64,000 nucleotides of DNA from Gammaproteobacteria bacterium (lineage in GTDB: Bacteria; Pseudomonadota; Gammaproteobacteria; CAKMZV01), in the NCBI GenBank assembly GCA_965219665.1, contig CBDCOD010000024.1, positions 209,633 through 273,632 on the forward strand, read 5' to 3'. How positions within the stretch are numbered: position 1 is the stretch's first letter; the number at the start of each line of letters is the position of its first letter. Under the pieces are notes generated by a model. That model saw only the letters and a program-made list of their open reading frames with translations. It had not been told where the DNA came from and made no database searches. Position numbers and translations under genes: made by a program. Below, one piece after another: positions 41,757-61,916 of this stretch.

Positions 41757-42118
41757 AATACATCCTCATAATTATAAATAGGCACATTAAATAGGTTATT
41801 CTACTATAGCTTAGTCTATTGTCGTGTGATAAGTTGTTTTGCTAACGCTCCCTGCAACTTTATATTTACTGCTCTGCCTGTTCAAACAGAACAGCAGTCC
41901 AAAACGAAGGAGTGCTTGTATCTTGAAAGCCGGCACCAAGCAGGCGAGCGTTACCATTGCTGTCCGTAGTATGGTACAAATCTTAAAAAACAAATATTTT
42001 TAAGTACTTGAAATAACAAATCTTTTTAAAATCAAATGGCTTTTGGGTGGAGATTTGGTGGAAATTTTCGTGCAACCGTGCATTTGCACCACCTGTGTTT
42101 CACATATATGTGTAGTAT

Positions 42119-42495: not shown

Positions 42496-42732
42496 AATCA
42501 ACAAAAAGTACCGTAAGGGTTACGGTTGCACAATCTACCAAACCACACAAAGGTAAGGGAGTAAAACAAACAGAAAAACAAAAATCTAAAGCCCTTATGC
42601 AGAAGATGTTGGTGCTCTTAATTCCTAAGTACAGCACCAAAAAAATGCAAGAAGAAAGTGGACCTCTTGTTGTTAATAAACCGTTTCTATTTAAGGTGCG
42701 TTAGCATACCTCTTCTCAAACAACGAAATGCA

Positions 42733-42879
42733 ATGAAAAAAGACACTTTCTATTTTCCACACGATTACAACGCTGCCTCTGATGAAAAGATAGAGAAACT
42801 GCTTTTCGAACTTGGTAATGAAGGCTATGGTATTTATTGGAGAATTATTGAAATGCTCTATCAAAATAACCGGAGTTAG
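42733..42879 (+). pseudogene. 5' fragment of phage replisome-organizer-like gene (DUF4373 / Lin1244-Lin1753 N-terminal domain), truncated after 48 codons at the array boundary
   Basis: MKKDTFYFPHDYNAASDEKIEKLLFELGNEGYGIYWRIIEMLYQNNRS* matches the characteristic DUF4373 N-terminus (K-D-x-[FY]-Y-F-x-H-D-x-N-A-x-x-D-x-K-I ... EGYG.YW...E). The frame ends 2 nt before the orphan tail cassette. Confidence 0.55.
42778..42871 (+). repeat. left copy of ~93-bp direct repeat (DUF4373 gene segment) flanking the array
   Basis: TCTGATGAAAAGATAGAG...ATGCTCTATCAAAATAAC is about 90% identical to 60698-60790 (about 9 mismatches). Confidence 0.7.
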
Positions 42880-42881
42880 TT

Positions 42882-43073
42882 GTGACAGTTACCGCTGCGG
42901 TAGCACAAGCTGCCAGCAGTGGTGGCGGTGGTGGCGGTGGCGACAGCAGCGGCGGCGGTGGCGGGGGTGGCTGTAGCTTACAGTCTGAATCAGGCGCAAT
43001 AGACTGGACGCTATGGTTGCTTGCTCTATTGAGTTTAGCTGCACTGCGTGGCTATCGCCGCAGGGTATCTTAG
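42882..43073 (+). other. orphan 3' cassette encoding only the C-terminal sorting-signal tail of the NHL/cadherin protein family
   Basis: 63 codons, MTVTAAVAQAASSGGGGGGGDSSGGGGGGGCSLQSESGAIDWTLWLLALLSLAALRGYRRRVS*. The last 40 residues are identical to the tails of array copies 1-3. It is followed by the same 210-bp spacer and has no upstream gene body. Confidence 0.5.
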
Positions 43074-43174
43074 ATGAAAGGGCAGAAATGCCGTTTTATG
43101 TGACACAATTGCCATTCATGCTCAAAAGCAGCCTGAATGGATGCAATGTTTGCTGCGACACGTTTTCCTAACTG

Positions 43175-43215
43175 TTCGCAGCGAATAGTATCGTATGGTT
43201 GTGTTACAATCCCCT
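43175..43215 (+). promoter_or_regulatory. putative sigma-70 extended -10 promoter (TGtTACAAT) repeated in each array spacer
   Basis: TGTTACAAT at 43202-43210, about 74 nt upstream of the copy-1 ATG. The same element is conserved at 48027-48035, 52814-52822 and 57636-57644 ahead of copies 2-4. The -35 element is weak. Confidence 0.3.
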
Positions 43216-43283
43216 TAATATATATATTTATAGAACAACGAATCCATTCATTTCATTCATATCAATAATCACACAGAACTATT

Positions 43284-46200
43284 ATGCATACGAACAATAC
43301 ACATAGCAATACACATAGCAGTACATTTAACAATACACTGTATTCCATCCAAAAACGGGTAGTTTTCTTGCTCTGCATAGTATCGGCATTGGTGTCGGCA
43401 TCGCTGTGGTCAATGACAGCAAGTGCAGCTGCGCCAGTTGCTTTAAGCCATATTTTGTCTGTACAAACCTACGCAGGGGGTGGGAATGGCGATGACAGCA
43501 CCTCCGATGGCGCCAGCACCAAAACCGCGCGGTTTAGTGGAGTTAGTGGGCTTAGAGTAGCACCGGATGGGCGCCTCTTTGTCGCGGACAGTGAGCGCTT
43601 ACGCGTGGTGAGCGCGGATGGCAGCACGGTATCCACCTACGCTGGTGGCGGCAGCGTGGATGTAGATAGCGCCAGCACCGCCAATATTCGTTTTCGCAGT
43701 CTCCAAGACGTAGCCATTCACCCCGATGGACGCGTGTTTGTTTTAGATGGAGGCTTCTCCTCTGGGAATCGCGTATATGTTATTAACCCAACTGGCAGCA
43801 CCGCCTCTGTTTATGCGGGCGGGGGACCAATTGGTGGCTTTGCTGGCAGTTTTGCAGATGGTGCCAGTACTACCACTGCGCGCTTTGACCGACCTTTGGG
43901 GATGGCGCTTCGCTCTGATGGACGGCTTTTCATTGCCGATACAGCCAACCATCGCATTCGCGTCATCAGCGCGGATGGCGCCACCGTTTCTACCTATGCA
44001 GGCAATGGCAATCCAGGATTGCTTGATGGCGATGCGGATGCGGCTGAGTTTAATGGCCCTGTCAGCCTGGCATTTGCTACCGATGGGCGCCTCTTTGTCG
44101 GCGATGGCAACAACCGCCGCATTCGGGTGATTAGTGCCGATGGCAATACGGTTTCCACCTACGCCGGTCGCGGTGCCACTGGCGAAACAGCATTAGGTTC
44201 ACCATTCCCGCCCGCTGATAGCATTGATTTTTTTGATGTTGCCTATATTGCTATTACCAACGATGGGCGCATTCTGGTCAGCGATGATGGCTCTTCTAAT
44301 ATTCGGGTTATCAGCGCGGATGGCAGCCGTGTTTCTGTGTATGCAGGCGTTAATGTTGCCGCCTCTGACGATATAAGACCAAGCTTTCCCTCTAGCCCCT
44401 TAAATGAAGGTCTTCCTGCTGCAGAGGCGGGTTTTAGAAACCCTAGGGGCATCGCTATTGACGCGACTGGGCGGGTATTTGTCGCCAATCGCGATTTTAA
44501 CTTAGTGAGCGTTATTGCCCCCAGTTTGGCAGTGGCAGATATCCCCCCTGCGCAATTAAGCGCTGCACAGCAAGTACGCGGAGCAAGCGTCTTCAGCGCT
44601 GGCGTGGTGCAATCCCTATTTAGCGATGCGGATGGGAGCACCTTAAGCTACAGCTTGGTCGAAACCAGTTCGGCGACGGCTGTATCCTTTGCCATTGATA
44701 GCGTCAGTGGCGCTATCACCTACCTTCAGCCCACAGAGGCGCTGGCTAATACGCAAACACTGGTGATTGCCGTCAGTGATGAGCAAGGCACAGCTACTTC
44801 CCGTCTGACGGTTATTTCTGAACCTTTGAGCAACTATCCGCCCCAGTTTGGTTTATCCACCAGTGCCCTCACGCGCGCAGAAGGGTTTGCAGACCCCATA
44901 ACCATTACCATCAATGACCCAGATGATGGGGATACGGACAGTATAGAGCAGGCGATTACATACAGCCTACGCATAGACCCTAATGACTTATTGGCGCCTT
45001 TTGCAACATTTGCGATTGACCCACAATCAGGCACAATCACCATTACCAGCATCAGCGGCGTAGGCGCGTTTGGCAATATAACCGTTCGGGTTATTGCTGA
45101 TGATGGCAGTAACAGCCATAGTGAGTCCGAACAAAGCTTTACCCTCACTGTAACCCAAGTGAATAACACCCCGCCTGTGGTAGCTCCAAGCCTGCGCACT
45201 GTGCGCACCTATGCAGGCAGCGGCGGTAACGATTTTGCAGATGGTAGCGCCCTGACAGCACAATTCAACACTCCAAACGGTATTGCTCGGGCAGCCGATG
45301 GACGCATCTTTGTTGCAGATACTTTCAACCATCGTATTCGCGTCATTAGTGCTGATGGTGCGACTGTTTCCACTTATGCAGGTGATGGCGTTGCGGCCTT
45401 TGCAGATGGCAGCACCAGCACAGCACGCTTTTCCCAACCTCAAGGCATTGCCGTGGCAGCCGATGGCCGCCTCTTTGTTGCAGATGAGTTCAATAACCGT
45501 ATTCGCGTCATTAGTGCCGATGGTGCAACTGTTTCCACTTATGCAGGTGATGGCGAAGCGGCCTTTGTAGATGGCAGCACCACCACGGCACGCTTTAGTT
45601 TTCCACGCGGTATTGCCGTGGCAGCCGATGGGCGCGTCTTTGTTGCAGATACTTTCAATAACCGTATTCGCGTCATTAGTGCCGATGGTGCTACCGTCTC
45701 TACTTATGCAGGCATTGGTGGCTTTGGCTTCGCCAATGGCAGCACCAGCACGGCACAATTTAGTTTACCATTCGGCGTTGCCGTGGCAGCCGATGGGCGC
45801 GTCTTTGTTGCAGATGCTGGCAATCAGCGCATTCGCGTCATTAGTGCCGATGGTGCGACTGTTTCCACTTATGCAGGTGATGGCGTTGAGAACTTTGCAG
45901 ATGGCAGCACCACCACCGCTCGCTTTGAAGAGCCAACCGATCTTGTAGTTGCCTCCGATGGTCGCGTCTTTGTTGCTGACACAAATAACAATCGGATTCG
46001 CGTGATTAGTGCCGATGGTGCCTCTGTCTCTACCTATGCAGGTAGTGGTGCAGCTGCCCAAACCAATGAGCCTCAAAAATCACAAACCGCTCTTGATATA
46101 GATTTAAGAGAACCGCGAAGAATGATTCTTGCGCCGGATGGACGCCTCTTTTTCACTGACTCAGGTAACCATCGTATTCGCGTGATTGAAGTCATTTCCT

Positions 46201-47894
46201 CAACTTCTGAAAACTTTGGCTCTGTTACCTTAGGTGCTGAATTTCAAGGGGCTGGAACGCGCGTTATTGGCGCACAAAACCTATTTTTTGATGCAGAAGC
46301 TAATGACTTAACCTTTAGCATTCTCTCTGGTAATGAGGACGGCTTATTTGCCATCGATGCAGCCAGTGGCAGGGTTACGCTGGCAGGCAGTTTAACCGAT
46401 AGACAAACAGGGATCAACACGCTGGTTATCCAGGCACAAGATCTTGCTGGCAGCGCCACCGTAACCCTTACCATCGTAGTGGAAGAGGTGAACGATCCTC
46501 CCACGTTCGCCCTGTCTACCAGCACATTGGAATTAGATGAAGATTTCGGCACTAATACCGATATTGTGGTAGTGAATCCCGATGATGGGGACGCTGCGAT
46601 TGAGCAAATACTGACTTATAGCGTGAGCACCAACAATGTTGGCTTTACCACACTGACTATCAATGCACAATCAGGGACACTTACCTTGACCAGTATAGCG
46701 GATGCTTTTGGTGAGGCAACTCTTACCATAACGGTGACTGATTCTTCTGCTACCAACAATGAGGCAACCCAAGTCCTTAGATTACGAGTACTCTCTGTGA
46801 ATGACCCGCCTGCCTTTTCCCTCTCTACGACCACACTGAGGCTCACTGAGGACTTTGCTCAAGCAATAACTGTATCGGTGGTGAACCCAAATGATGTTGA
46901 TGGTGATGGTGATGGCATGGAGCAAACTTTAACCTATAGCATATCACCAGTTAGTTTAGAGGTGGTTGGTATAAGCTTTGATGCCAATTCAGGTCAAGTA
47001 ATTCTCAATAGCGTTGCCGATGCCAATAGCATTAACCCGATTCTGTTTGAAATAACTGCGAATGATGGTGGCGCGGTCAATAATCTATTCTCGCAGTCAT
47101 TTACCCTTGAGATTGAGCCTGTGAATGACCCAGGGAGGAATGACCCGCCTAATGTTGTGCTGTCAACTGCTGTGCTCACGCTGGATGAAGATTTTGGCAG
47201 TGCTTCTATAACTGTGGTGAGAAGCGATGACGGGGATGACACCAATCAACCTTTGACTTATAGTATAAGCACCACTAATATCGGTTTTGCAATGATTTCT
47301 ATTGATAGCAACTCAGGCGCTATAACCCTGAGTAGTGTCGATAACCAATTTGGGCAAGCCACTTTGTTTGTGACGGTGGATGACTCTGCTCCTGAGGATA
47401 ATCTTTCAATCATACAGGTTGTTGTTAGGGCACGTGCTGTGAACGATGTGCCAACTTTTACCTTATCACGAACGGCGTTGACGCTGGATGAGGATTTTGG
47501 AACCAATACGGATATTAGCGTGGTGAGTCCAAATGATGGCGACAATGGCGATCAAGTGATTACTTATAGTATTAATCCTACTAATACCGAATTTGCTACT
47601 TTAGCAATTGATGCGCAAACAGGGGAGGTTACTATAACCAGTGTCGCTAATGGATTTGGGAGTGCAGTCATTACAGTGATAGCAGAAGATGATGGTGGCG
47701 GCGATACCAACCAGTCAACCCAAACCTTTATGCTGACTGTGGTTGATAGTGTGTCAGAAGCTGCCAGCAGTGGTGGCGGAGGTGGTGGAGGCTGTAGCTT
47801 ACAGTCTGAATCAGGCGCAATAGACTGGACGCTATGGTTGCTTGCTCTATTGAGTTTAGCTGCACTGCGTGGCTATCGCCGCAGGGTATCTTAG
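43284..47894 (+). CDS. giant secreted repeat protein, copy 1: signal peptide, NHL beta-propeller, cadherin/Ig-like domains, second NHL propeller, ~5 cadherin-like domains, C-terminal GlyGly-CTERM/MYXO-CTERM-like sorting tail
   Basis: 1536 aa. Twelve NHL-type blades (e.g. ...ARF..P.G.A..ADGRLFVADT.NHRIRVISADGATVSTYAG.G...). Repeated ~100-aa modules are bounded by VNDPP(A/T)F as in cadherin-like/RTX adhesin repeats. The tail is SSGGGGGGGCSLQSESGAIDWTLWLLALLSLAALRGYRRRVS. Confidence 0.85.
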   Translation: MHTNNTHSNTHSSTFNNTLYSIQKRVVFLLCIVSALVSASLWSMTASAAAPVALSHILSVQTYAGGGNGDDSTSDGASTKTARFSGVSGLRVAPDGRLFVADSERLRVVSADGSTVSTYAGGGSVDVDSASTANIRFRSLQDVAIHPDGRVFVLDGGFSSGNRVYVINPTGSTASVYAGGGPIGGFAGSFADGASTTTARFDRPLGMALRSDGRLFIADTANHRIRVISADGATVSTYAGNGNPGLLDGDADAAEFNGPVSLAFATDGRLFVGDGNNRRIRVISADGNTVSTYAGRGATGETALGSPFPPADSIDFFDVAYIAITNDGRILVSDDGSSNIRVISADGSRVSVYAGVNVAASDDIRPSFPSSPLNEGLPAAEAGFRNPRGIAIDATGRVFVANRDFNLVSVIAPSLAVADIPPAQLSAAQQVRGASVFSAGVVQSLFSDADGSTLSYSLVETSSATAVSFAIDSVSGAITYLQPTEALANTQTLVIAVSDEQGTATSRLTVISEPLSNYPPQFGLSTSALTRAEGFADPITITINDPDDGDTDSIEQAITYSLRIDPNDLLAPFATFAIDPQSGTITITSISGVGAFGNITVRVIADDGSNSHSESEQSFTLTVTQVNNTPPVVAPSLRTVRTYAGSGGNDFADGSALTAQFNTPNGIARAADGRIFVADTFNHRIRVISADGATVSTYAGDGVAAFADGSTSTARFSQPQGIAVAADGRLFVADEFNNRIRVISADGATVSTYAGDGEAAFVDGSTTTARFSFPRGIAVAADGRVFVADTFNNRIRVISADGATVSTYAGIGGFGFANGSTSTAQFSLPFGVAVAADGRVFVADAGNQRIRVISADGATVSTYAGDGVENFADGSTTTARFEEPTDLVVASDGRVFVADTNNNRIRVISADGASVSTYAGSGAAAQTNEPQKSQTALDIDLREPRRMILAPDGRLFFTDSGNHRIRVIEVISSTSENFGSVTLGAEFQGAGTRVIGAQNLFFDAEANDLTFSILSGNEDGLFAIDAASGRVTLAGSLTDRQTGINTLVIQAQDLAGSATVTLTIVVEEVNDPPTFALSTSTLELDEDFGTNTDIVVVNPDDGDAAIEQILTYSVSTNNVGFTTLTINAQSGTLTLTSIADAFGEATLTITVTDSSATNNEATQVLRLRVLSVNDPPAFSLSTTTLRLTEDFAQAITVSVVNPNDVDGDGDGMEQTLTYSISPVSLEVVGISFDANSGQVILNSVADANSINPILFEITANDGGAVNNLFSQSFTLEIEPVNDPGRNDPPNVVLSTAVLTLDEDFGSASITVVRSDDGDDTNQPLTYSISTTNIGFAMISIDSNSGAITLSSVDNQFGQATLFVTVDDSAPEDNLSIIQVVVRARAVNDVPTFTLSRTALTLDEDFGTNTDISVVSPNDGDNGDQVITYSINPTNTEFATLAIDAQTGEVTITSVANGFGSAVITVIAEDDGGGDTNQSTQTFMLTVVDSVSEAASSGGGGGGGCSLQSESGAIDWTLWLLALLSLAALRGYRRRVS

Positions 47895-48103
47895 ATGAAA
47901 AAGGCAGAAATGCCGTTTTATGTGACACAATTGCCATTCATGCTCAAAAGCGCCTGAATGGATGGCTGCAATGTTTGCTGCGACACGTTTTCCTAACTGT
48001 TCGCAGCCAATAGTATCGTATGGTTGTGTTACAATTCTCTTAATATATATATTTATAGAACAACGAATCCATTCATTCATATCAATAATCACACAGAACT
48101 ATT

Positions 48104-51100
48104 ATGCATAAGACCAATACACATAGCAATACACTGTATTCCATCCAAAAACGCTTAGTTTTCTTGCTCTGCATAGTATCGGCATTGGTGTCGGCATCGC
48201 TGTGGTCAATGACAGCAAGTGCAGCTGCGCCAGTTGCTTTAAGCCATATTTTGTCTGTACAAACCTACGCAGGGGGTGGGAATGGCCCAGCCAACACCTC
48301 CGATGGCAACAGCACCAAAACCGCGCGGTTTGATATACCCACTGGGCTTAGAGTAGCACCGGATGGGCGCCTTTTTGTCACGGACAGTGAGCGCTTACGC
48401 GTGGTGAGCGCGGATGGCAGCACGGTATCCACCTACGCTGGTGGCGGCATCGTGGATGTAGTAGATAGCGCCAGCACCGCCAATATTCGTTTTCGCAGAC
48501 TCCGAGACGTAGCCATTCACCCCGATGGCCGCGTGTTTGTTTTAGATGGAGGCTTCTCCTCTGGGCATCGCGTATATGTTATTGACCCAACTGGCAGCAC
48601 CGCCTCTGTCTATGCGGGCGGAGGACCAATTGGTAACTTTGCTGGCAGTTTTGCAGATGGTGGCAGCACTACCACTGCGCGCTTTAACCAACCTTTGGGG
48701 ATGGCGCTTCGCTCTGATGGACGGCTTTTCATTGCCGATACAGCCAACCATCGCATTCGCGTCATCAGCGCGGATGGCGCCACCGTTTCTACCTATGCAG
48801 GCAATGGCAATCCAGGATTGGTTGATGGCGATGCGGATGCGGCTGAGTTTAATGGCCCTGTCAGCCTGGCATTTGCTACCGATGGGCGCCTCTTTGTCGG
48901 CGATGGCAACAACCGCCGCATTCGGGTGATTAGTGCCGATGGCAATACGGTTTCCACCTACGCCGGTCGCGGCGCCACTGGCGAAACAGACCTAGAGTCA
49001 CAATTCCCGCCCGCTGATAGCATTGATTTTTTTGATGTTGCCTATATTGCTATTACCACCGATGGGCGCATTATAGTCAGCGATGATGGTTCTCATAATA
49101 TTCGGGTCATCAGCGCGGATGGCAGCCGTGTTTCTGTGTATGCAGGCGCTGATGGAGTCAGCTCTGGCAACATACGAACAAGCTTTCCCTTTAACCCCTT
49201 AAATGAAGGTCCTGCTGCAGAGGCAGGTTTTAGAACCCCTAGGGGCATCGCTATTGATGCGGCTGGGCGGGTATTTGTCGCCAATCGCGATTTTAGCTTA
49301 GTGAGCGTTATTGCCCCCAGTTTGGCAGTGGCAGATATCCTCCCTGCGCAATTAAGCGCTGCACAGCAAGTACGCGGAGCAAGCCTCTTCAGCGCTGGCG
49401 TGGTGCAATCCCTATTTAGCGATGCGGATGGGAGCACCTTAAGCTACAGCTTGGTCGAAACCAGTTCGGCGACGGCTATATCCTTTGCCATTGATAGTGT
49501 CAGTGGCGCTATCACCTACCTTCAGCCCACAGAGGCGCTGGCTAATACGCAAACACTGGTGATTGCCGCCAGTGATGAGCAAGGCACAGCTACTTCCCGT
49601 CTGACGGTTATTTCTGAACCTTTGAGCAACTACCCGCCCCAGTTTGGTTTATCCACCAGTGCCCTCACGCGCGCAGAAGGGTTTGCAGACCCCATAACCA
49701 TTACCATCAATGACCCAGATGATGGGGATACGGACGGTATAGAGCAGCCGATTACATACAGCCTGCGCATAGCCCCTAATGACTTATTGGCGCCTTTTGC
49801 AACATTTGCGATTGACCCACAATCAGGCACAATCACCATTACCAGTATCAGCGGCGCAGGCGCGTTTGGCAATATAACCGTTCGGGTTATTGCTGATGAT
49901 GGCAGTAACAGCCATAGTGAGTCCGAACATAGCTTTGCCCTCACTGTAACCCAAGTGAATAACAGCCCGCCTGTGGTAGCTCCAAGCCTGCGCATTGTGC
50001 GCACCTATGCAGGCAGCGGCGTTAGCGATTTTGCAGATGGTAGCGCCCTGACAGCACAATTCAACGCTCCACGCGGTATTGCCCGTGCAGCCGATGGCCG
50101 CCTCTTTGTTGCAGATGCTTCCAATGACCGCATCCGAGTAATCAGTGCCGATGGTGCGACTGTTTCCACTTATGCAGGTGATGGCGTTGAGAACTTTGCA
50201 GATGGCAGCACCAGCACCGCACGCTTTCGTTCTCCAAGCGGCGTTGCTCTGGCAGCCGATGGGCGCGTCTTTGTTGCAGATACGGATAACAATCGGATTC
50301 GCGTGATTAGTGCCGATGGTGCGACTGTTTCCACTTATGCAGGTGATGGCGTTGAGGGCTTTGCAGATGGCAGCACCAGCACGGTACGCTTTCGTTTTCC
50401 ACGTGGCGTTGCCTTGACAGCCGATGGGCGCCTCTTTGTTGCAGATACTTTCAATGACCGTATTCGCGTCATTAGTGCCGATGGTGCGACTGTTTCCACT
50501 TATGCAGGTGGTGGCGTTCCGGGCTTTGCAGATGGCAGCACCACCACCGCACGCTTTAATACGCCACGCGGCGTTGCCTTGGCAGCCGATGGGCGCGTCT
50601 TTGTTGCAGATGCTGGCAATCACCGCATTCGCGTCATTAGTGCCGATGGTGCGACTGTTTCCACTTATGCAGGTGATGGCGTTGAGAGCTTTGCAGATGG
50701 CAGCACGACCACCGCTCGCTTTGATGACCCAACCGATTTTGTAGTTGCCTCCGATGGTCGGCTGTTTGTTGCTGATACGGGTAACAGTCGGATTCGCGTG
50801 ATTAGTGCCGATGGTGCCTCTGTCTCTACCTATGCAGGTAGTGGTGCAGTTGCCCAAGCTAATGAGCATCAAGAATTACAAGCCGCTGTTGATATAGATA
50901 TAGGCGCTCCGCGAAGAATGACTCTTGCGCCGGATGGACGCCTCTTTTTCACTGACTCAGATAGTAATCGTATTCGCGTGATTGAAGACGTTTCCTCAAC
51001 TTCTGAAAACTTTGGCTCTGTTACCTTAGGCGCTGGATTTCAAGGGGCTGGAACGCGCGTTATTAGCGCACAAAACCTATTTTTTGATGCAGAAGGTAAT

Positions 51101-52681
51101 GACTTAACCTTCAGCATTCTCTCTGGTAATGAAGACGGCTTATTTGCCATCGATGCAGCCAGTGGCAGGGTTACGCTGGCAGGCAGTTTAACCGATAGAC
51201 AAACAGGGATCAACACGCTGGTTATCCAGGCACAAGATCTTGCTGGCAGCGCCACCGTAACCCTTACCATCGTAGTGGAAGAGGTGAACCAAGCTCCCAC
51301 GTTCGCCCTGTCTTCCAGCACTTTGGAATTAGATGAAGATTTCGGCACTAATACCGATATTGTGGTAGTGAATTCCGATGATGGGGATGCCGCGATTGAG
51401 CAAATACTGACTTATAGCGTGAGCACCAACAATGTCGGCTTTACCACACTGACTATCAATGCACAATCAGGGGCACTTACCTTGACCAGTATAGCGGATG
51501 CTTTTGGTGAGGCAACCCTTACCATAACGGTGAGTGATTCTTCTACTACCAACAGTGAGGCAACCCAAACCCTTAGATTACGAGTACTCCCCGTGAATGA
51601 CCCGCCTGCCTTTTCCCTCTCTACGACCACACTGAGGCTCACTGAGGACTTTGCTCAAGCAATAACTGTATCGGTGGTGAACCCAAATGATGGCGATGAT
51701 GATGGCATGGAGCAAACTTTAACCTATAGCATATCACCGGTTAGTTTAGAGGTGGTTGGTATAAGCTTTGATGCCAATTCAGGTCAAGTAATTCTCAATA
51801 GCGTTGCCGATGCCAATAGCATTAACCCGATTCTGTTTGAAATAACTGCGAATGATGGTGGCGCGGTCAATAATCTATTCTCGCAGTCATTTACCCTTGA
51901 GATTCAGCCTGTGGATGACCCGGGGAATGACCCGCCTAATGTTGTGCTGTCAACTGCTGTGCTCACGCTGGATGAAGATTTTGGCAGTGCTTCTATAACT
52001 GTGGTGAGTAGCGATGACGGGGATGGCACCAATCAACCTTTGACTTATAGTATAAGCACCACTAATATCGGTTTTGCAACGATTTCTATTGATAGCAACT
52101 CAGGCGCTATAACCCTGAGTAGTGTCGATAACCAATTTGGGCAAGCCACTTTGTTTGTGACGGTGGATGACTCTGCTCCTGAGGATAATCTTTCAATCAT
52201 ACAGGTTGTTGTTGAGGCACGTTCTGTGAACGATGTGCCAACTTTTACCTTATCACGAACGGCGCTGACGCTGGATGAGAATTTTGGAAGCAATACGGAT
52301 ATTAGCGTGGTGAGTCCAAATGATGGCGACAATGGCGATCAAGTGATTACTTATAGTATTAATCCTACTAATACTGGATTTGCTACTTTAGCAATTGATG
52401 CGCAAACAGGGGAGGTTACTATAACCAGTGTCGCTAATGGATTTGGGAGTGCAGTCATTACAGTGATAGCAGAAGATGATGGTGGCGGCGATACCAACCA
52501 GTCAACCCAAACCTTTATGCTGACTGTGGTTGATAGTGTGTCAGAAGCTGCCAGCAGTGGTGGCGGAGGTGGTGGAGGCTGTAGCTTACAGTCTGAATCA
52601 GGCGCAATAGACTGGACGCTATGGTTGCTTGCTCTATTGAGTTTAGCTGCACTGCGTGGCTATCGCCGCAGGGTATCTTAG
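48104..52681 (+). CDS. giant secreted NHL-propeller/cadherin-like repeat protein with C-terminal sorting tail, copy 2
   Basis: 1525 aa, collinear with copy 1 and estimated by eye at about 90-95% identity. It has a shorter N-terminal repeat stretch and scattered substitutions, mostly in propeller blades. Confidence 0.85.
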   Translation: MHKTNTHSNTLYSIQKRLVFLLCIVSALVSASLWSMTASAAAPVALSHILSVQTYAGGGNGPANTSDGNSTKTARFDIPTGLRVAPDGRLFVTDSERLRVVSADGSTVSTYAGGGIVDVVDSASTANIRFRRLRDVAIHPDGRVFVLDGGFSSGHRVYVIDPTGSTASVYAGGGPIGNFAGSFADGGSTTTARFNQPLGMALRSDGRLFIADTANHRIRVISADGATVSTYAGNGNPGLVDGDADAAEFNGPVSLAFATDGRLFVGDGNNRRIRVISADGNTVSTYAGRGATGETDLESQFPPADSIDFFDVAYIAITTDGRIIVSDDGSHNIRVISADGSRVSVYAGADGVSSGNIRTSFPFNPLNEGPAAEAGFRTPRGIAIDAAGRVFVANRDFSLVSVIAPSLAVADILPAQLSAAQQVRGASLFSAGVVQSLFSDADGSTLSYSLVETSSATAISFAIDSVSGAITYLQPTEALANTQTLVIAASDEQGTATSRLTVISEPLSNYPPQFGLSTSALTRAEGFADPITITINDPDDGDTDGIEQPITYSLRIAPNDLLAPFATFAIDPQSGTITITSISGAGAFGNITVRVIADDGSNSHSESEHSFALTVTQVNNSPPVVAPSLRIVRTYAGSGVSDFADGSALTAQFNAPRGIARAADGRLFVADASNDRIRVISADGATVSTYAGDGVENFADGSTSTARFRSPSGVALAADGRVFVADTDNNRIRVISADGATVSTYAGDGVEGFADGSTSTVRFRFPRGVALTADGRLFVADTFNDRIRVISADGATVSTYAGGGVPGFADGSTTTARFNTPRGVALAADGRVFVADAGNHRIRVISADGATVSTYAGDGVESFADGSTTTARFDDPTDFVVASDGRLFVADTGNSRIRVISADGASVSTYAGSGAVAQANEHQELQAAVDIDIGAPRRMTLAPDGRLFFTDSDSNRIRVIEDVSSTSENFGSVTLGAGFQGAGTRVISAQNLFFDAEGNDLTFSILSGNEDGLFAIDAASGRVTLAGSLTDRQTGINTLVIQAQDLAGSATVTLTIVVEEVNQAPTFALSSSTLELDEDFGTNTDIVVVNSDDGDAAIEQILTYSVSTNNVGFTTLTINAQSGALTLTSIADAFGEATLTITVSDSSTTNSEATQTLRLRVLPVNDPPAFSLSTTTLRLTEDFAQAITVSVVNPNDGDDDGMEQTLTYSISPVSLEVVGISFDANSGQVILNSVADANSINPILFEITANDGGAVNNLFSQSFTLEIQPVDDPGNDPPNVVLSTAVLTLDEDFGSASITVVSSDDGDGTNQPLTYSISTTNIGFATISIDSNSGAITLSSVDNQFGQATLFVTVDDSAPEDNLSIIQVVVEARSVNDVPTFTLSRTALTLDENFGSNTDISVVSPNDGDNGDQVITYSINPTNTGFATLAIDAQTGEVTITSVANGFGSAVITVIAEDDGGGDTNQSTQTFMLTVVDSVSEAASSGGGGGGGCSLQSESGAIDWTLWLLALLSLAALRGYRRRVS

Positions 52682-52887
52682 ATGAAAAAGGCAGAAATGC
52701 CGTTTTATGTGACACAATTGCCATTCATGCTCAAAAGCGCCTGAATGGATGGCTGCAATGTTTGCTGCGACACGTTTTCCTAACTGTTCGCAGCCAATAG
52801 TATCGTATGGTTGTGTTACAATCCTCTTAATTATATATATTTATAGAACAACGAATCCATTCATATCAATAATCACACAGGACTATT

Positions 52888-55800
52888 ATGCATACGATCA
52901 ATACACATAGCAGTACACATAGCAATACATTTAACAATACACTGTATTCCATCCAAAAACGCTTAGTTTTCTTGTTCTGCATAGTATCGGCATTGGTGTC
53001 GGCATCGCTGTGGTCAATGACAGCAAGTGCAGCTGCGCCAGTTGCTTTAAGCCATATTTTGTCTGTACACACCTACGCAGGGGGTGGGACTGGCCCTGAC
53101 AGCACCTCCGATGGCAACAGCACCCAAACCGCGCGTTTTGATCAACCCAATGGGCTTAGAGTAGCACCGGATGGGCGCCTCTTTATCACGGACCGTGGGC
53201 GCTTACGCGTGGTGAGCGCGGATGGCAGCACGGTATCCACCTACGCTGGTGGCGGTAGTGTGGATGTAGATAGCGCCAGCACCTCCAATATTCGTTTTCG
53301 CGAACTCCAAGACGTAGCTATTCACCCCGATGGCCGCGTGTTTGTTTTAGATGGAGGGTCGCGCTCTGGGCATCGCGTGTATGTTATTGACCCAACTGGC
53401 AGCACCGCCTCTGTCTATGCGGGCGGGGGACCAATTGGTAACTTTGCTGGCAGTTTTGCAGATGGTGCCAGCACTACCACTGCGCGCTTTAACCAACCTT
53501 TGGGGATGGTGCTTCACTCTGATGGACGGCTTTTCATTGCCGACACAGACAACCATCGCATTCGCGTCATCAGCGCGGATGGCGCCACCGTTTCTACCTA
53601 TGCAGGCAATGGCAATCCAGGATTGGCTGATGGCGATGCGGATGCGGCTGAGTTTAACGGTCCTGTCAGCCTGGCATTTGCTACCGATGGGCGCCTCTTT
53701 GTCGGCGATGGCAACAACCGCCGCATTCGGGTGATTAGTGCCGATGGCAATACGGTTTCCACCTACGCCGGTCGCGGTGCCACTGGCGAAACAGCATTAG
53801 GTTTACCATTCCCGCCCGCTGATAGCATCGATTTTTTTGATGTTGCCTATATTGCCATTACCACCGATGGGCGCATTCTAGTCAGCGATGATGGCTCTCA
53901 TAATATTCGGGTCATCAGCGCAAATGGCAGCCGTATTTCTGTGTATGCAGGCGCTAATGGAGTCACCCCTGGCAACATAAGAGGCTTTGCCCCTAACCCC
54001 TTAAATGAAGGTCTTCCTGCTGTAGACGCAGGTTTTGGAAGCCCTAGGGGCATCGCTATTGACGCGACTAGGCGGGTATTTGTCGCCAATCGCAATTTTA
54101 ACTTAGTGAGCGTTATTGCCCCCAGTTTGGCAGTGGCAGATATCCCCCCTGCGCAATTAAGCGCAGCACAGCAAGTACGCGGATCAAGCGTCTTCAGCGC
54201 TGGCGTGGTGCAATCTCTATTTAGCGATGCGGATGGGAGCACTTTAAGCTACAGCTTGGTCGAAACCAGTTCGGCGACGGCTGTATCCTTTGCCATTGAT
54301 AGCGTCAGTGGCGCTATCACCTACCTTCAGCCCACAGAGGCGCTAGCTAATACGCAAACACTGGTGATTGCCGCCAGTGATGAGCAAGGCACAGCTACTT
54401 CCCGTCTGACGGTTATTTCTGAACCTTTGAGCAACTATCCGCCCCAGTTTGGTTTATCCACCAGTGCCCTCACGCGCGCAGAAGGGTTTGCAGACCCCAT
54501 AACCATTACCATCAATGACCCAGATGATGGGGATACGGACGGTATAGAGCAGCCGATCACATACAGCCTGCGCATAGACCCTAATGACTTATTGGCGCCT
54601 TTTGCAACATTTGCGATTGACCCACAATCAGGCACAATCACCATTACCAGTATCAGCGGCGCAGGCGCGTTTGGCAATATAACCGTTCGGGTTATTGCTG
54701 ATGATGGCAGTAACAGCCGTAGTGAGTCCGAACAAAGCTTTACCCTCACTGTAACCCAAGTGAATAACAGCCCGCCTGTGGTAGCTCCAAGCCTGCGCAT
54801 TGTGCGCACCTATGCAGGCAGCGGCGTTAACGATTTTGCAGATGGTAGCGCCCTGACAGCACAATTCAACGCTCCAAGCGGTATTGCTCGGGCAGCCGAT
54901 GGACGGCTTTTCATTGCCGATACAGACAACCATCGTATTCGCGTCATTAGTGCCGATGGTGCGACTGTTTCCACTTATGCAGGTGATGGCGTTGAGGACT
55001 TTGCAGATGGCAGCACCAGCACGGCACGCTTTAGTTCTCCACGTGGCGTTGCCTTGGCAGCCGATGGCCGCCTCTTTGTTGCAGATGAGTTCAATCACCG
55101 TATTCGCGTCATTAGTGCCGATGGTGCGACTGTTTCCACTTATGCAGGTGATGACGCTGCGGCTTTTGCAGATGGCAGCACCAGCACGGCACGCTTTAGT
55201 TCTCCACGTGGCGTTGCCTTGGCAGCCGATGGACGCCTCTTTGTTGCAGATACTTTCAATGACCGTATTCGCGTCATTAGTGCCGATGGTGCGACTGTTT
55301 CTACTTATGCAGGCAGTGGTTTTGGCTTCGCCAATGGCAGCACCAGCACCGCCCGCTTTAATACGCCACGCGGCGTTGCCGTGGCAGCCGATGGGCGCGT
55401 CTTTGTTGCAGATGCTGGCAATCAGCGCATTCGCGTCATTAGTGCCGATGGTGCGACTGTTTCCACTTATGCAGGTGATGGCGTTCAGAGCTTTGCAGAT
55501 GGCAGCACGACCACCGCTCGGTTTGATAGCCCAACCGATTTTGTAGTTACCTCCGATGGTCGCGTCTTTGTTACTGATACGGGTAATCATCGTATTCGCG
55601 TGATTAGTGCCGATGGTGCCTCTGTCTCTACCTATGCAGGTAGTGGTGCAGTTGCCCAAACTAATGCGCCTCAACTAGAATCACAAACCGCTCTTGATAT
55701 AGATTTAAGATTTCCGCAAAGAATGACTCTTGCGCCGGATGGACGCCTCTTTTTCACTGAGACAAATATTCATCGTATTCGCGTGATTGAAGTCGTTTCC

Positions 55801-57504
55801 TCAGCTTCTGAAAACTTTGGCTCTGTTACCTTAGGCGCTGAATTTCAAGGGGCTGGAACGCACGTTATTGGCGCACAAAACCTATTTTTTGATGCAGAAG
55901 GTAATGACTTAACCTTCAGCATTCTCTCTGGTAATGAGGACGGCTTTTTTGCCATCGATGCAGCCAGTGGCAGGGTTACGCTGGCAGGCAGTTTAACCGA
56001 TAGACAAACAGGGATCAACACGCTGGTTATCCAGGCACAAGATCTTGCTGGCAGCGCCACCGTAACCCTTACCATCGTAGTGGAAGAGGTGAACGATCCT
56101 CCCACGTTCGCCCTGTCTACCAGCACATTGGAATTAGATGAAGATTTCGGCACTAATACCGATATTGTGGTAGTGAATCCCGATGATGGGGACGCTGCGA
56201 TTGAGCAAATACTGACTTATAGCGTGAGCACCAACAATGTTGGCTTTACCACACTGACTATCAATGCACAATCAGGGACACTTACCTTGACCAGTATAGC
56301 GGATGCTTTTGGTGAGGCAACTCTTACCATAACGGTGACTGATTCTTCTGCTACCAACAATGAGGCAACCCAAGTCCTTAGATTACGAGTACTCTCTGTG
56401 AATGACCCGCCTGCCTTTTCCCTCTCTACGACCACACTGAGGCTCACTGAGGACTTTGCTCAAGCAATAACTGTATCGGTGGTGAACCCAAATGATGTTG
56501 ATGGTGATGGTGATGGCATGGAGCAAACTTTAACCTATAGCATATCACCAGTTAGTTTAGAGGTGGTTGGTATAAGCTTTGATGCCAATTCAGGTCAAGT
56601 AATTCTCAATAGCGTTGCCGATGCCAATAGCATTAACCCGATTCTGTTTGAAATAACTGCGAATGATGGTGGCGCGGTCAATAATCTATTCTCGCAGTCA
56701 TTTACCCTTGAGATTGAGCCTGTGGATGACCCAGGGAGGAATGACCCGCCTAATGTTGTGCTGTCAACTGCTGTGCTCACGCTGGATGAAGATTTTGGCA
56801 GTGCTTCTATAACTGTGGTGAGAAGCGATGACGGGGATGGCACCAATCAACCTTTGACTTATAGTATAAGCACCACTAATATCGGTTTTGCAATGATTTC
56901 TATTGATAGCAACTCAGGCGCTATAACCCTGAGTAGTGTCGATAACCAATTTGGGCAAGCCACTTTGTTTGTGACGGTGGATGACTCTGCTCCTGAGGAT
57001 AATCTTTCAATCATACAGGTTGTTGTTGAGGCACGTGCTGTGAACGATGTGCCAACTTTTACCTTATCACGAACGGCGTTGACGCTGGATGAGGATTTTG
57101 GAACCAATACGGATATTAGCGTGGTGAGTCCAAATGATGGCGACAATGGCGATCAAGTGATTACTTATAGTATTAATCCTACTAATACCGAATTTGCTAC
57201 TTTAGCAATTGATGCGCAAACAGGGGAGGTTACTATAACCAGTGTCGCTAATGGATTTGGGAGTGCAGTCATTACAGTGATAGCAGAAGATGATGGTGGC
57301 GGCGATACCAACCAGTCAACCCAAACCTTTATGCTGACTGTGCTGGATGTGGTTGATAGTGTGTCACAGCCTGCCAGCAGTGGTGGCGGGGGTGGTGGCG
57401 GCTGTAGCTTACAGTCTGAATCAGGCGCAATAGACTGGACGCTATGGTTGCTTGCTCTATTGAGTTTAGCTGCACTGCGTGGCTATCGCCGCAGGGTATC
57501 TTAG
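52888..57504 (+). CDS. giant secreted NHL-propeller/cadherin-like repeat protein with C-terminal sorting tail, copy 3
   Basis: 1538 aa with the same architecture and tail as copies 1-2. Confidence 0.85.
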   Translation: MHTINTHSSTHSNTFNNTLYSIQKRLVFLFCIVSALVSASLWSMTASAAAPVALSHILSVHTYAGGGTGPDSTSDGNSTQTARFDQPNGLRVAPDGRLFITDRGRLRVVSADGSTVSTYAGGGSVDVDSASTSNIRFRELQDVAIHPDGRVFVLDGGSRSGHRVYVIDPTGSTASVYAGGGPIGNFAGSFADGASTTTARFNQPLGMVLHSDGRLFIADTDNHRIRVISADGATVSTYAGNGNPGLADGDADAAEFNGPVSLAFATDGRLFVGDGNNRRIRVISADGNTVSTYAGRGATGETALGLPFPPADSIDFFDVAYIAITTDGRILVSDDGSHNIRVISANGSRISVYAGANGVTPGNIRGFAPNPLNEGLPAVDAGFGSPRGIAIDATRRVFVANRNFNLVSVIAPSLAVADIPPAQLSAAQQVRGSSVFSAGVVQSLFSDADGSTLSYSLVETSSATAVSFAIDSVSGAITYLQPTEALANTQTLVIAASDEQGTATSRLTVISEPLSNYPPQFGLSTSALTRAEGFADPITITINDPDDGDTDGIEQPITYSLRIDPNDLLAPFATFAIDPQSGTITITSISGAGAFGNITVRVIADDGSNSRSESEQSFTLTVTQVNNSPPVVAPSLRIVRTYAGSGVNDFADGSALTAQFNAPSGIARAADGRLFIADTDNHRIRVISADGATVSTYAGDGVEDFADGSTSTARFSSPRGVALAADGRLFVADEFNHRIRVISADGATVSTYAGDDAAAFADGSTSTARFSSPRGVALAADGRLFVADTFNDRIRVISADGATVSTYAGSGFGFANGSTSTARFNTPRGVAVAADGRVFVADAGNQRIRVISADGATVSTYAGDGVQSFADGSTTTARFDSPTDFVVTSDGRVFVTDTGNHRIRVISADGASVSTYAGSGAVAQTNAPQLESQTALDIDLRFPQRMTLAPDGRLFFTETNIHRIRVIEVVSSASENFGSVTLGAEFQGAGTHVIGAQNLFFDAEGNDLTFSILSGNEDGFFAIDAASGRVTLAGSLTDRQTGINTLVIQAQDLAGSATVTLTIVVEEVNDPPTFALSTSTLELDEDFGTNTDIVVVNPDDGDAAIEQILTYSVSTNNVGFTTLTINAQSGTLTLTSIADAFGEATLTITVTDSSATNNEATQVLRLRVLSVNDPPAFSLSTTTLRLTEDFAQAITVSVVNPNDVDGDGDGMEQTLTYSISPVSLEVVGISFDANSGQVILNSVADANSINPILFEITANDGGAVNNLFSQSFTLEIEPVDDPGRNDPPNVVLSTAVLTLDEDFGSASITVVRSDDGDGTNQPLTYSISTTNIGFAMISIDSNSGAITLSSVDNQFGQATLFVTVDDSAPEDNLSIIQVVVEARAVNDVPTFTLSRTALTLDEDFGTNTDISVVSPNDGDNGDQVITYSINPTNTEFATLAIDAQTGEVTITSVANGFGSAVITVIAEDDGGGDTNQSTQTFMLTVLDVVDSVSQPASSGGGGGGGCSLQSESGAIDWTLWLLALLSLAALRGYRRRVS

Positions 57505-57715
57505 ATGAAAGGCAGAAATGCTGTTTTATGTGACACAATTGCCATTCATGCTCAAAAGCAGCCTGAATGGATGGCTGCAATGTTTGCTGCGACACGTTTT
57601 CCTAACTGTTCGCAGCGAATAGTATCGTATAGTTGTGTTACAATCCTCTTAATATATACACATCTATATAACAACGCATTCATTCATTCATATCAATAAT
57701 CACAGAGGACTATTA

Positions 57716-60674
57716 TGCATACGATCAATATACACATAGCAGTACATTTAACAATACACTGTATTCCATCCAAAAACGCTTAGTTTTGTTGTTCTGCATC
57801 GTATCGGCATTGGTGTCGGCATCGCTGTGGTCAATGACAGCAAGTGCAGCTGCGCCAGTGGCTTTAAGCCATAGTGCGTCCGAACATAGCTTTGCCCTCA
57901 CTGTAACCCAAGTGAATAACAGCCCGCCTGTGGTAGCTCCAAGCCTGCGCATTGTGCGCACCTATGCAGGCAGCGGCGTTAACGATTTTGCAGATGGTAG
58001 CGCCCTGACAGCACAATTCAACGCTCCAAGCGGTATTGCTCGGGCAGCCGATGGACGCCTCTTTGTTGCAGATACTTTCAATCACCGCATCCGAGTAATC
58101 AGTGCCGATGGTGCGACGGTTTCCACTTATGCAGGTGATGGCGTTAACGGGCTTTGCAGATGGCAGCACCAGCACGGCACGCTTTAGTGATCAACCTCAA
58201 GGCGTTGCCTTGGCAGCCGATGGACGCCTCTTTGTTGCAGATGAGAGCCAATCACCGTATTCGCGTGATTAGTGCCGATGGTGCGACTGTTTCCACTTAT
58301 GCAGGTAATGGCGTTCGCGGCTTTTGCAGATGGCAGCACCAGCACGGCACGCTTTCGTGGGTCCAGTCGGCGTTGCCGTGGCAGCCGATGGACGCCTCTT
58401 TGTTGCAGATACTTTCAATAGACCGTATTCGCGTCATTAGTGCCGATGGTGCTACCGTCTCTACTTATGCAGGCACTGGTTTTTTTGGCTTTGCCAATGG
58501 CGAGCGCCAGCACCGCTCGCTTTGGTTCTGCCTCAACTGGCGTTGCCGTGGCAGCCGATGGACGCGTCTTTGTTGCAGATACGGGTCAATAACGTCGGAT
58601 TCGCGTCATTAGTGCCGATGGTGCGACGGTTTCTACTTATGCAGGTGATGGCTTTGCGGGCATTTGCAGATGGCAGCACCACCACCGCACGCTTTGACGA
58701 ACCTCGAGGCGGTATGGCCGTGGCAGCCGATGGTCGCGTCTTTGTTGCTGATGAGGTCAATCAATCGGATTCGCGTGATTAGTGCCGATGGTGCCTTTGT
58801 CTCTACCTATGCAGGTAGTGGTACAGCTACCCAAACCAATGAGCCTCAAGCATTACAAGCCGCTCTTGATATAGATTTAAGCGCAACCGCGAAGAATGAC
58901 GCTTGCGCCGGATGGACGCCTCTTTTTCACTGACTCAGGTAACCATCGTATTCGCGTGATTGAAGTCATTTCCTCAACTTCTGAAAACTTTGGCTCTGTT
59001 AGCTTAGGCGCTGGACTTCAAGGGGCTGGAACGCACGTTATTGGCGCACAAAACCTATTTTTTGATGCAGAAGGTAGTGACTTAAGCTTCAGCATTCTCT
59101 CTGGTAATGAGGACGGCTTATTTGCCATCGATGCAGCCAGTGGCAGGGTTACGCTGGCAGGCAGTTTAACCGATACACGAACAGGGATCAACACGCTGGT
59201 TATCCAGGCAGAAGATCTTGCTGGCAGCGCCACCGTAACCCTTACCATCGTAGTGGAAGAGGTGAACGATCCTCCCACGTTCGCCCTGTCTTCCAGCACT
59301 TTGGAATTAGATGAAGATTTCGGCACTAATACCGATATTGTGGTAGTGAATCCCGATGATGGGGATGCCGCGATTGAGCAAATACTGACTTATAGCGTGA
59401 GCACCAACAATGTCGGCTTTACCACTCTGACTATCAATGCACAATCAGGGACACTTACCCTGACCAGTATAGCGGATGCTTTTGGTGAGGCAACTCTTAC
59501 CATAACGGTGACTGATTCTTCTGCTACCAACAATGAGGCAACCCAAACCCTTAGATTACGAGTACTCCCCGTGAATGACCCGCCTGCCTTTTCCCTCTCT
59601 ACGACCACCCTGAGGCTCGATGAGGACTTTGCTCAAGCAATAACTGTATCGGTGGTGAACCCAAATGATGGTGATGATGGCATGGAGCAAACTTTAACCT
59701 ATAGCATATCACCGGTTAGTTTAGGGGTGGTTGGTATAAGCTTTGATGCCAATTCAGGTCAAGTAATTCTCAATAGCGTTGCCGATGAAAATAGCATTAA
59801 CCCGATTCTGTTTGAAATAACTGCGAATGATGGTGGCGCGGTCAATAATCTATTCTCGCAGTCATTTACCCTTGAGATTGAGCCTGTGGATGACCCGGGG
59901 AATGACCCGCCTAATGTTGTGCTGTCAACTGCTGTGCTCACGCTGGATGAAGATTTTGGCAGTGCTTCTATAACTGTGGTGAGTAGCGATGACGGGGATG
60001 GCACCAATCAACCTTTGACTTATAGTATAAGCACCACTAATATCGGTTTTGCAACGATTTCTATTGATAGCAACTCAGGCGCTATAACCCTGAGTAGTGT
60101 CGATAACCAATTTGGGCAAGCCGCTTTGTTTGTGACGGTGGATGACTCTGCTCCTGAGGATAATCTTTCAATCATACAGGTTGTTGTTAGGGCACGTGCT
60201 GTGAACGATGTGCCAACTTTTACCTTATCACGAACGGCGCTGACACTGAATGAGGATTTTGGAAGCAATACGGATATTAGCGTGGTGAGTCCAAATGATG
60301 GCGACAATGGCGATCAAGTGATTACTTATCGTATTAATCCTACTAATACCGAATTTGCTACTTTAGCAATTGATGCGCAAACAGGGGAGGTTACTATAAC
60401 CAGTGTCGCTAATGGATTTGGGAGTGCAGTCATTACAGTGATAGCAGAAGATGATGGTGGCGGCGATACCAACCAGTCAACCCAAACCTTTATGCTGACT
60501 GTGGTTGATAGTGTGTCAGAAGCTGCCAGCAGTGGTGGCGGGGGTGGTGGCTGTAGCTTACAGTCCGCAACGAACCACCCTATAGACACTACACTCTGGT
60601 GGCTCCTGTTATTAAGCCTTGCGCTACTAACAGTGCGCGCTTATACAACGCGCCGCCCTCAAAAAAACCTATAG
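57716..60674 (+). pseudogene. degraded copy 4 of the NHL/cadherin repeat-protein gene (internal ~1.7-kb deletion, multiple frameshifts in second propeller, variant tail)
   Basis: Same upstream spacer and ATG context. The N-terminal repeat has a 2-nt indel. The signal peptide joins directly to the residue-~610 region (SASEHSFALTVTQVNNSPPVV). Reading frames break repeatedly between 58100 and 58900 (ORFs 57786..58187, 58154..58612, 58522..58782, 58664..58933). The ORF is intact from 58896 to the tail SSGGGGGGCSLQSATNHPIDTTLWWLLLLSLALLTVRAYTTRRPQKNL*. Confidence 0.75.
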
Positions 60675-60697
60675 CATAATTGAACATCAAATCCATA

Positions 60698-60790
60698 TCT
60701 GATGAAAAGATAGAGGAACTGTTGTTCAAACTTGGTAATGAAGGCTGTGGTGTCTATTGGAGAATAGTTGAAATGCTCTATCAAAACAAC
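60698..60790 (+). repeat. right copy of ~93-bp direct repeat (DUF4373 gene segment) flanking the array
   Basis: Encodes SDEKIEELLFKLGNEGCGVYWRIVEMLYQNN, versus SDEKIEKLLFELGNEGYGIYWRIIEMLYQNN in the left copy. Confidence 0.7.
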
Positions 60791-60827
60791 AATTCCTTAC
60801 GAACGTAATACGAACCTAATACTATAA

Positions 60828-60986
60828 AAGGAAAGTATTAAAAAAGAAGTATCTGACGATACTTCACAAAAAAACACAAAAAAAGATTCAAGTCCAATTA
60901 AATCAGTCGTCAGCAAACCTTACGACGTAACCCAAGAAACTTGGGACGCTTGGCTTACAGTCAGAGATTGTAGGGGGGGTAGATGA
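60828..60986 (+). pseudogene. fragment of phage replication protein (middle region with TQETWDAWLTVR motif), no start codon
   Basis: Open frame KESIKKEVSDDTSQKNTKKDSSPIKSVVSKPYDVTQETWDAWLTVRDCRGGR*. The W-x2-W/F-x3-R segment matches the conserved motif found after the N-terminal domain in phage DnaD-like replisome-organizer proteins. Confidence 0.35.
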
Positions 60987-61843: not shown

Positions 61844-61916
61844 ATAATCAACTGCTGCGGCAGGCAGGAAGCCTACGGGCGCAGTTTTGCCGGTGTTAGT
61901 GGGTGATTGATTGTCG

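Follow-up and report, generated by a model that had tools for sequence, protein, structure and literature searches.

Remnants of a phage-type replication-initiator gene on both sides of an adhesin gene array in an uncultured gammaproteobacterium

Replication initiators with an N-terminal DUF4373/Lin1244_N domain and a C-terminal domain similar to DnaT or lambda O are encoded by phages and phage-plasmids and belong to PHROG families 2562, 678, and 6451, with the annotations 'replication initiation protein', 'primosomal protein', and 'DnaD domain protein'. Here, we analyze two fragments homologous to such a gene (hereafter rep) that flank a tandem array of adhesin genes in a 64,000-nucleotide stretch (the window) of contig CBDCOD010000024.1, assigned to an uncultured gammaproteobacterium. 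In contrast to the phage initiators, both window copies are pseudogene fragments: the upstream one (copy A) retains 46 codons, while the downstream one (copy B) lacks codons 1-15 and ~55-150 and is interrupted. The DNA segment they have in common appears as a 93-bp direct repeat around the array.

Three further kinds of described systems are comparable with this locus. The element e14 and phage 21, both in icd of Escherichia coli, and tRNA-targeting islands integrate inside a gene and carry a replacement for its end, which leaves partial-gene direct repeats. As in these cases, diverged partial-gene repeats flank inserted DNA here; there, however, the repeat consists of a gene end, and the host gene is made whole by one copy, beside an integrase, whereas the repeat considered here is internal (codons 16-46), comes from a mobile-element gene, has no intact copy, and is accompanied by no integrase that we could find. 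Cryptic prophage remnants near surface-protein islands are similar in that, here too, fragments of rep and of Mu-F head-protein genes and an inserted 1.6-kb element occur beside a block of deviating composition, with IS3-type remnants at the corresponding place in related contigs only; unlike in a one-off decayed prophage, the leader that bears copy A occurs at several sites, to which it was copied along with the adhesin cassette, and starts at a precisely defined left edge. Finally, tandem surface-protein gene arrays that undergo unequal crossing-over resemble this one in having 94-95% identical units (of 4.8 kb), a copy number that varies between loci (1, 1, 3+, and 4), and tail-tail recombinants; compared to them, the array is not unusual, and the rep fragments are bystanders.

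The locus is a real but ordinary mobile-element relic, and its sole mildly interesting aspect is a multi-copy, recombining adhesin module tagged with a 5' stub of rep. We consider it very likely that the direct repeats are the overlap of two dead rep fragments, that the composite containing them pre-dates the array, and that the array has grown by recombination between its units, with no involvement of the rep repeats. The locus thereby shows a large surface-adhesin region of an uncultured gammaproteobacterium embedded in mobile-element debris, corrects the tempting idea of flanking repeats driving amplification, and draws attention to an adhesin module present in multiple copies, which recombine and thereby rearrange the chromosome; for annotation, it adds two pseudogene fragments, an orphan sorting tail, and a nested insertion. 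Wider interest would arise if the module proved to move actively or to serve in surface variation; the present evidence is that of a relic.

The two 93-bp segments lie on the same strand and align without gaps at 83/93 identical positions (89.2%; BLASTN E 1e-31), the longest identical run being 19 bp. Neither self-comparison of 41-64 kb nor tblastn with an intact homologue reveals a third copy in the window. An earlier reading of the sequence alone (the original prediction) had described a DUF4373-like open reading frame (ORF) at 42733 whose 93-bp tail recurs downstream; both statements are borne out, although the end given for the upstream segment, 42871, lies one base beyond the true one. 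Membership of the two segments in DUF4373 is likewise confirmed. The ORF 42733-42879 matches Pfam PF14297 (Lin1244_N, formerly DUF4373; cut-off 25) at 41.6 bits (E 2e-10), covering positions 1-40 of the 95 in the profile; the downstream fragment 60698-60808 covers positions 10-41 at 24.0 bits (E 7e-5), slightly below the cut-off, and shows 90% protein identity (35/39 amino acids) to P0003, an intact 277-aa relative that itself scores 43.9 bits. Full-length relatives in the family have 152-277 aa, and neither window copy contains a complete domain in an intact ORF of ~170-280 aa; both are derived fragments and not functional family members.

Comparison with PHROGs shows a match of ORF 42733-42879 to phrog_2562 ('replication initiation protein', E 2e-11), weaker matches of the downstream copy to the same families, and a match of a composite of the copy B pieces to phrog_678 ('replication initiation O-like', E 4e-10). 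With the domain as a tblastn query, 17 phage records annotated as replication initiation factors or DUF4373 and 18 IMG/VR contigs were obtained; the wider phage-type evidence for the family comprises 33 phage records, 91 viral (IMG/VR) contigs, and Enterococcus EF62phi-type phage-plasmids. P0003, recovered from metagenome assembly ERZ25072490 with the composite of copy B pieces, matches phrog_2562 over residues 5-251. Its gene (L029, positions 2765-3598) is adjacent to genes of a DnaC-like helicase loader, RNase H, a CI/S24-type repressor, and TrbC/TraF-like proteins; in a tblastn search of the window with L029 proteins, rep alone matches, with no adjoining replication module at either copy. 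Judged by homology, both fragments come from a phage-type DUF4373/Lin1244_N replication-initiator gene with a DnaT/O-like C-terminal domain. For the source, 'phage-type mobile element' is a safer term than 'prophage' or 'satellite', because the contig of the closest intact relative also bears conjugation-type genes.

Copy A consists of rep codons 1-46 (42733-42870), two foreign codons, and TAG at 42877-42879, forming a 48-codon ORF (the stub); in tblastn, residues 1-48 of P0003 align to 42733-42876 with 88% amino acid identity. After AAC (42868-42870), the rep sequence gives way to CGGAGTTAG, which is followed by the final ~65 codons of an adhesin gene (42882-43073). Continuous homology (42944-53056 with 47765-57873) places this orphan tail with the array units; it is the remainder of a truncated upstream unit ('unit 0') fused to the stub. 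The previously noted distance of 2 nt between the stub and the array is roughly right: the next ORF, the orphan tail, indeed runs from 42882, whereas homology between units starts from 42904/42944.

Copy B begins 23 nt past the stop codon of the last adhesin gene, which ends at 60674, in agreement with its predicted position directly after the last array unit. Codons 16-54 are found at 60698-60814 and contain an in-frame TAA (60806-60808) where P0003 reads on; this is the premature termination noticed earlier, while the further lesions of copy B had been missed. Codons 151-205 follow at 60828-60974 in another frame (tblastn with P0003), codons ~55-150 being removed by a 286-bp internal deletion (in blastn, L029 2810-2927 corresponds to 60698-60815, and 3214-3259 to 60827-60872). 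The remnant of the C-terminal domain (P0003 residues 209-252, E 1e-5) lies beyond the 1.6-kb insertion, which is bordered by a 7-bp direct repeat CAGAGAT (60962-60968 and 62571-62577) that looks like a target-site duplication. The ends of the insertion read TGTAGGGGGGG... and ...CCCCCGCAA; its part 60969-61500 is G-rich, and frameshifted fragments of a Mu-F-like minor head protein occupy the minus strand at 61532-62685 (Pfam Phage_Mu_F, E 7e-22; phrog_220, E 3e-37). The insertion is missing in the related locus L030, where the rep C-terminal domain is contiguous ('...WDAWLTVRDKRKAPLTTKAL...'), and present in L002. Only gene fragments, with no ORF longer than 128 aa and no intact prophage, are seen at 60.7-64.0 kb; no insertion sequence (IS) was found at the right end of the window, IS3 remnants being observed only in the related contigs L002 and L030. 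Together with the Mu-F fragments and the 1.6-kb insertion, these remnants agree with the mobile-element surroundings anticipated for the locus. Copies A and B are pseudogene fragments from illegitimate joints with adhesin-tail DNA, and neither can yield a functional protein; the 93-bp 'repeat' is an overlap, because both fragments happen to keep codons 16-46.

Related loci (L001-L006 and L030, contigs of two ENA metagenome assemblies; Table 1) were retrieved by exact-protein look-ups with the 48-aa stub, and carry identical or 93-96% identical versions of it. The truncation falls at the identical codon in eight stub copies. Contrary to the original prediction, decay of a gene at this one locus does not account for the upstream copy, which is an invariant stub within a leader present in at least five contexts, several of which have no copy B. 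The leader, ~0.9 kb including the stub, stands 5' of NHL/cadherin adhesin genes in each of these contexts. Its left edge at 41974 reads GTACAAATCTTAAAAAAC..., with different DNA leftward in each locus; the edge is at 3150 in L001, 9519 in L002, ~9241 in L003, 214 in L004, and 7213 in L030, giving six different left flanks. The edge consensus is GTAC(A/C)AATCTTAAAAAA(C/T)AAATATTTTTAAGTA and contains the palindrome CTTAAAAA-N7-TTTTTAAG; no inverted copy of the edge was found, including none at the right. A right boundary common to L002, L004, and L030 was considered as the right end of the module and rejected, as it is merely the end of an IS3-family remnant. The occurrence of the composite in several genomic contexts with a sharp left edge counts in favor of the original reading. 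At several sites, this adhesin family is accompanied by a leader module that has the stub as a constant component, and the copies of the module recombine with each other. One such product is L006, an inversion recombinant (7000-9090, compared with L002 9423-11517 and L001 3112-4094) in which a junction inside the adhesin gene connects a left flank and leader of the L001 type with the left flank of L002 in inverted orientation; the adhesin modules thus provide substrates for chromosomal rearrangement.

That the adhesin block lies between two fragments of a phage replication gene stands as originally proposed; amplification through these repeats does not. Between the same A...B pair, L002 and L030 contain one gene each, and the window contains four units; the size of the array is thus independent of the repeats. 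Amplification by recombination of A with B would leave a hybrid rep fragment at each joint; since self-BLASTN and tblastn reveal none at the unit junctions, the repeats did not amplify the array. The minimal efficient segment for RecA-dependent recombination is ~25 bp, hence repeats with identical runs of at most 19 bp are a poor substrate. Among the eight related loci, no A-by-B deletion is seen, while tail-tail, unit-unit, and inversion products are. DNA common to the loci reaches ~800 bp to the left of A and >2 kb to the right of B; hence, the repeats do not delimit a mobile unit. A classical transposon target-site duplication (2-14 bp, identical, next to terminal inverted repeats), already doubted in the original prediction, is excluded by the length of 93 bp, the 89% identity, and the lack of an inverted edge copy. 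It is highly improbable that the repeats are attachment-site-like ends of an integrative element with adhesin cargo, or a substrate for amplification or excision of the block: partial-gene direct repeats do flank a block whose GC content deviates (0.50 vs. 0.44), but their divergence and short identical runs, the common DNA passing beyond both copies, and the lack of A/B hybrids inside the array and of A-by-B deletions all argue against this, as does the lack of any integrase or recombinase gene in the DNA covered. Of the features of a phage satellite (PICI/P4-like), namely an integrase, att repeats, a replication initiator of its own, and genes that redirect helper packaging, none was detected in this DNA, which stops short of the right end of the unit. 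A tRNA-type integration site was also dropped, because tRNA and Rfam scans of the window gave nothing.

The order of events was probably as follows. Copy A (codons 1-46) would have been joined by illegitimate recombination to the last ~65 adhesin codons, and a 5'-truncated but otherwise whole rep gene, the later copy B, would have been joined 23 nt after the adhesin stop codon and would then have decayed further. The resulting composite (leader, stub A, orphan tail, adhesin gene, rep remnant B, and junk) probably formed before the array of the window, because loci with one gene between A and B exist. The leader with the stub was probably copied or recombined into several chromosomal sites later on, and the four-unit array probably grew when the 4.8-kb units and tails underwent unequal homologous recombination, or when sequence was exchanged with paralogous loci.

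Under this scenario, the two fragments may stem from one gene or from two. In the 93-bp segment, seven A copies agree with each other at 90-93/93 positions and two B copies at 90/93; A and B agree at 83-86/93, and either of them agrees with the intact gene of L029 at 80-83/93, with some states common to B and L029 and others to A and L029. Copy A, copy B, and the intact gene are thus about equally diverged, and we give both origins about equal weight. It is possible, if short of probable, that a single rep gene was split in situ by the insertion of a linear piece, copied from an adhesin tandem array, with a 93-bp target duplication, through replication template switching or break repair, A and B being once identical and having drifted since. 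Indeed, A (codons 1-46) and B (codon 16 onward), being in the same orientation, together rebuild one gene, both junctions are with adhesin-tail sequence, the A...B arrangement is common to the window, L002, and L030, and A and B are marginally closer to each other than either is to the intact gene; this difference, however, amounts to merely 2-4 positions, B and L029 share states missing in A (ATAGTT, AAAACAAC), the DNA upstream of the start codon of A has no homology to that upstream of the intact gene, and we know of no mechanism that regularly yields a target duplication of 93 bp. The other origin, for which the case is neither better nor worse, is that an adhesin gene came to lie between copies from two different related elements, each truncated by its own deletion, e.g., prophage-like elements in tandem or next to each other, the first of which carried the adhesin as cargo at its end. 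The near-equidistance of A, B, and the L029 rep, the unrelatedness of the A leader to the region upstream of the L029 rep, the many loci that bear A without B, and the junkyard character of the area, with fragments from several elements, are in line with this origin, which on the other hand needs two independent deletions whose products, by chance, overlap in the gene and have the same orientation, and would leave the lack of other remnants of the first element between A and the adhesin tail to be accounted for.

Several points weigh against the reading of the repeats as an inert overlap of dead fragments in a composite older than the array. All related loci derive from two metagenome assemblies, and their assignment to one genome is by similar coverage only; whether one gene or four was the ancestral state between A and B is something we infer. 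The right end of the copied unit, beyond the window, was not found. The segment 42491-42881, comprising the stub and ~240 nt in front of it, varies less among eight copies than any other part of the module (mean pairwise difference 0.018-0.026, compared to 0.08-0.11 for the edge-proximal part, the orphan tail, and the intergenic region), and the stub ORF is intact in all eight, with the same start and stop; the low variability could reflect constraint and not inertness. On these grounds, and given that the module is always 5' of adhesin genes, the stub may have been co-opted, with 42491-42881 serving as a regulatory or recombination 'handle' for adhesin cassettes or as a gene of a 48-aa peptide. 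We consider this unlikely: the stub spans only 40 of the 95 domain positions, the changes among the copies (~5 non-synonymous, 3 synonymous) do not indicate clear purifying selection, the array units have upstream regions of their own that contain no stub, the low diversity is explained equally well by recent copying or gene conversion, and scans for consensus promoters and terminators are unremarkable. A broader proposal, also rather unlikely, is that the stub and leader constitute the portable 5' end of an undescribed mobile or recombining family of JDVT-CTERM adhesin cassettes, in which the shared leader and tails would serve as homology handles and the genes would be copied, swapped, amplified, and inverted among at least five chromosomal sites, that is, surface variation built on the carcass of a phage replication module. 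The reading we prefer remains that of a relic with rep fragments as bystanders.

Table 1. Features of the adhesin locus in the window and in related loci (A and B, copies of the 93-bp direct repeat)
Feature	Position	Strand	Remarks
glyA	40503-41756	-	serine hydroxymethyltransferase; Pfam SHMT E 6e-168; left flank of the module in the window
Leader of adhesin module	41974-42732	+	homology to L001, L002, L003, L004, L006, L030 begins at 41974
Copy A, 5' stub of replication-initiator gene	42733-42879	+	matches PF14297, phrog_2562, P0003
Direct repeat, upstream copy	42778-42870	+	rep codons 16-46; 83/93 identical to 60698-60790
Orphan adhesin C-terminal sorting tail	42882-43073	+	NF033191 JDVT-CTERM, 35.8 bits (cut-off 27, NCBIfam)
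Adhesin gene 1	43284-47894	+	1536 aa
Adhesin gene 2	48104-52681	+	1525 aa
Adhesin gene 3	52888-57504	+	1538 aa
Fourth, shorter unit	57505-60674	+	not a single ORF; largest ORF 58896-60674, 592 aa
Direct repeat, downstream copy	60698-60790	+	rep codons 16-46
Copy B, first part of decayed rep gene	60698-60974	+	tblastn of P0003; blastn of L029
1.6-kb insertion interrupting copy B	60969-62570		absent from L030; Mu-F fragments
Copy B, remnant of C-terminal (DnaT/O-like) domain	62578-62722	+	P0003 residues 209-252 at 62591-62722
L001			left flank Glug-domain gene; tail, then different giant adhesin gene; no copy B
L002	A 10323-10415, B 14003-14095		left flank AHSA1 gene; single 1092-aa adhesin gene between A and B
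L003			left flank tuf; tail, then different giant adhesin gene; no copy B; NHL gene lost through tail-tail recombination
L004			left flank yet another sequence; first bases of B joint kept (ATCCATATCTG), copy B lost
L005			at least 3 adhesin genes
L006			left flank Glug-domain gene; inversion product of L001-like and L002-like loci
L030	A 7558-7650, B 11319-11411		left flank hsdS and hairpin element; single 1092-aa adhesin gene between A and B

The array units of ~4.8 kb extend from 42904/42944 to 60565, and the array both starts and ends in tail sequence. The three full adhesin genes encode NHL, teneurin-NHL, and cadherin domains (Pfam) and a JDVT-CTERM tail. NF033191 (JDVT-CTERM) matches gene 1, the last gene, and the orphan tail at 31.9-35.8 bits, above the cut-off of 27. 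The JDVT-CTERM tails, at 42882-43073, 47.7-47.9 kb, 52.5-52.7 kb, and 60.5-60.67 kb, are of two sequence types. The fourth unit ends in the second tail type and is the counterpart of the single gene in L002 and L030; it is split into several ORFs, with frame changes in the region of 165-bp NHL repeats (58.1-58.9 kb), and is either a pseudogene or the product of a sequencing or assembly problem in the repeats. Mapping the single adhesin of L030 on it was too ambiguous because of the internal repeats, and could be used only for showing the frame changes. JDVT-CTERM proteins are typically found one per proteome (preprint 10.1101/2023.06.07.544157); here, at least four and an orphan tail are observed within 18 kb, and further ones in the related loci.

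The leader contains two ORFs that have no Pfam or NCBIfam match and no relatives in viral contigs. The first (42119-42496, ~125 codons) begins like a signal peptide (MKIITGITTIVLFVLLSFNGAAK) but contains an in-frame TAG at 42188; it is a pseudo-ORF of a small secreted protein; copies of the L030/L004 type have CAG in place of this TAG, and a 455-bp deletion joins the secreted-protein ORF to the rep stub (P0004, 100 aa). The second comprises 82 codons (42456-42704).

The source organism is a deep-branching gammaproteobacterium. The glyA gene, the chromosomal left neighbor outside the module, has its closest non-self relatives, besides a near-identical ENA cluster, at ~70-74% identity (Thiohalophilus, Methylophaga, Chromatiales). 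Exact look-ups of the window glyA and nrdR and of P0006 and P0126, members of the near-identical glyA cluster, yield no contig, and those of ORFs from the copy B region return nothing. GTDB species genomes contain only 52-64% identical DUF4373 genes in unrelated taxa, and the source lineage is not among them; exact-pattern scans of JGI metagenomes and IMG/VR with the A junction and the conserved rep core give no match.

The GC content is 0.50 in the adhesin array (42882-60674), 0.44 in the chromosomal backbone, and 0.36 in the leader. In L030, a long inverted repeat at 7085-7212 (CCCCTTGAGGGGGAGTCG ... CGACTCCCCCTCAAGGGG, ~130 bp), similar to miniature inverted-repeat transposable elements (MITE) or repetitive extragenic palindromes (REP), abuts the module edge; it separates the module from hsdS within a type I restriction-modification locus where a GmrSD-like gene is truncated by an IS3 remnant.

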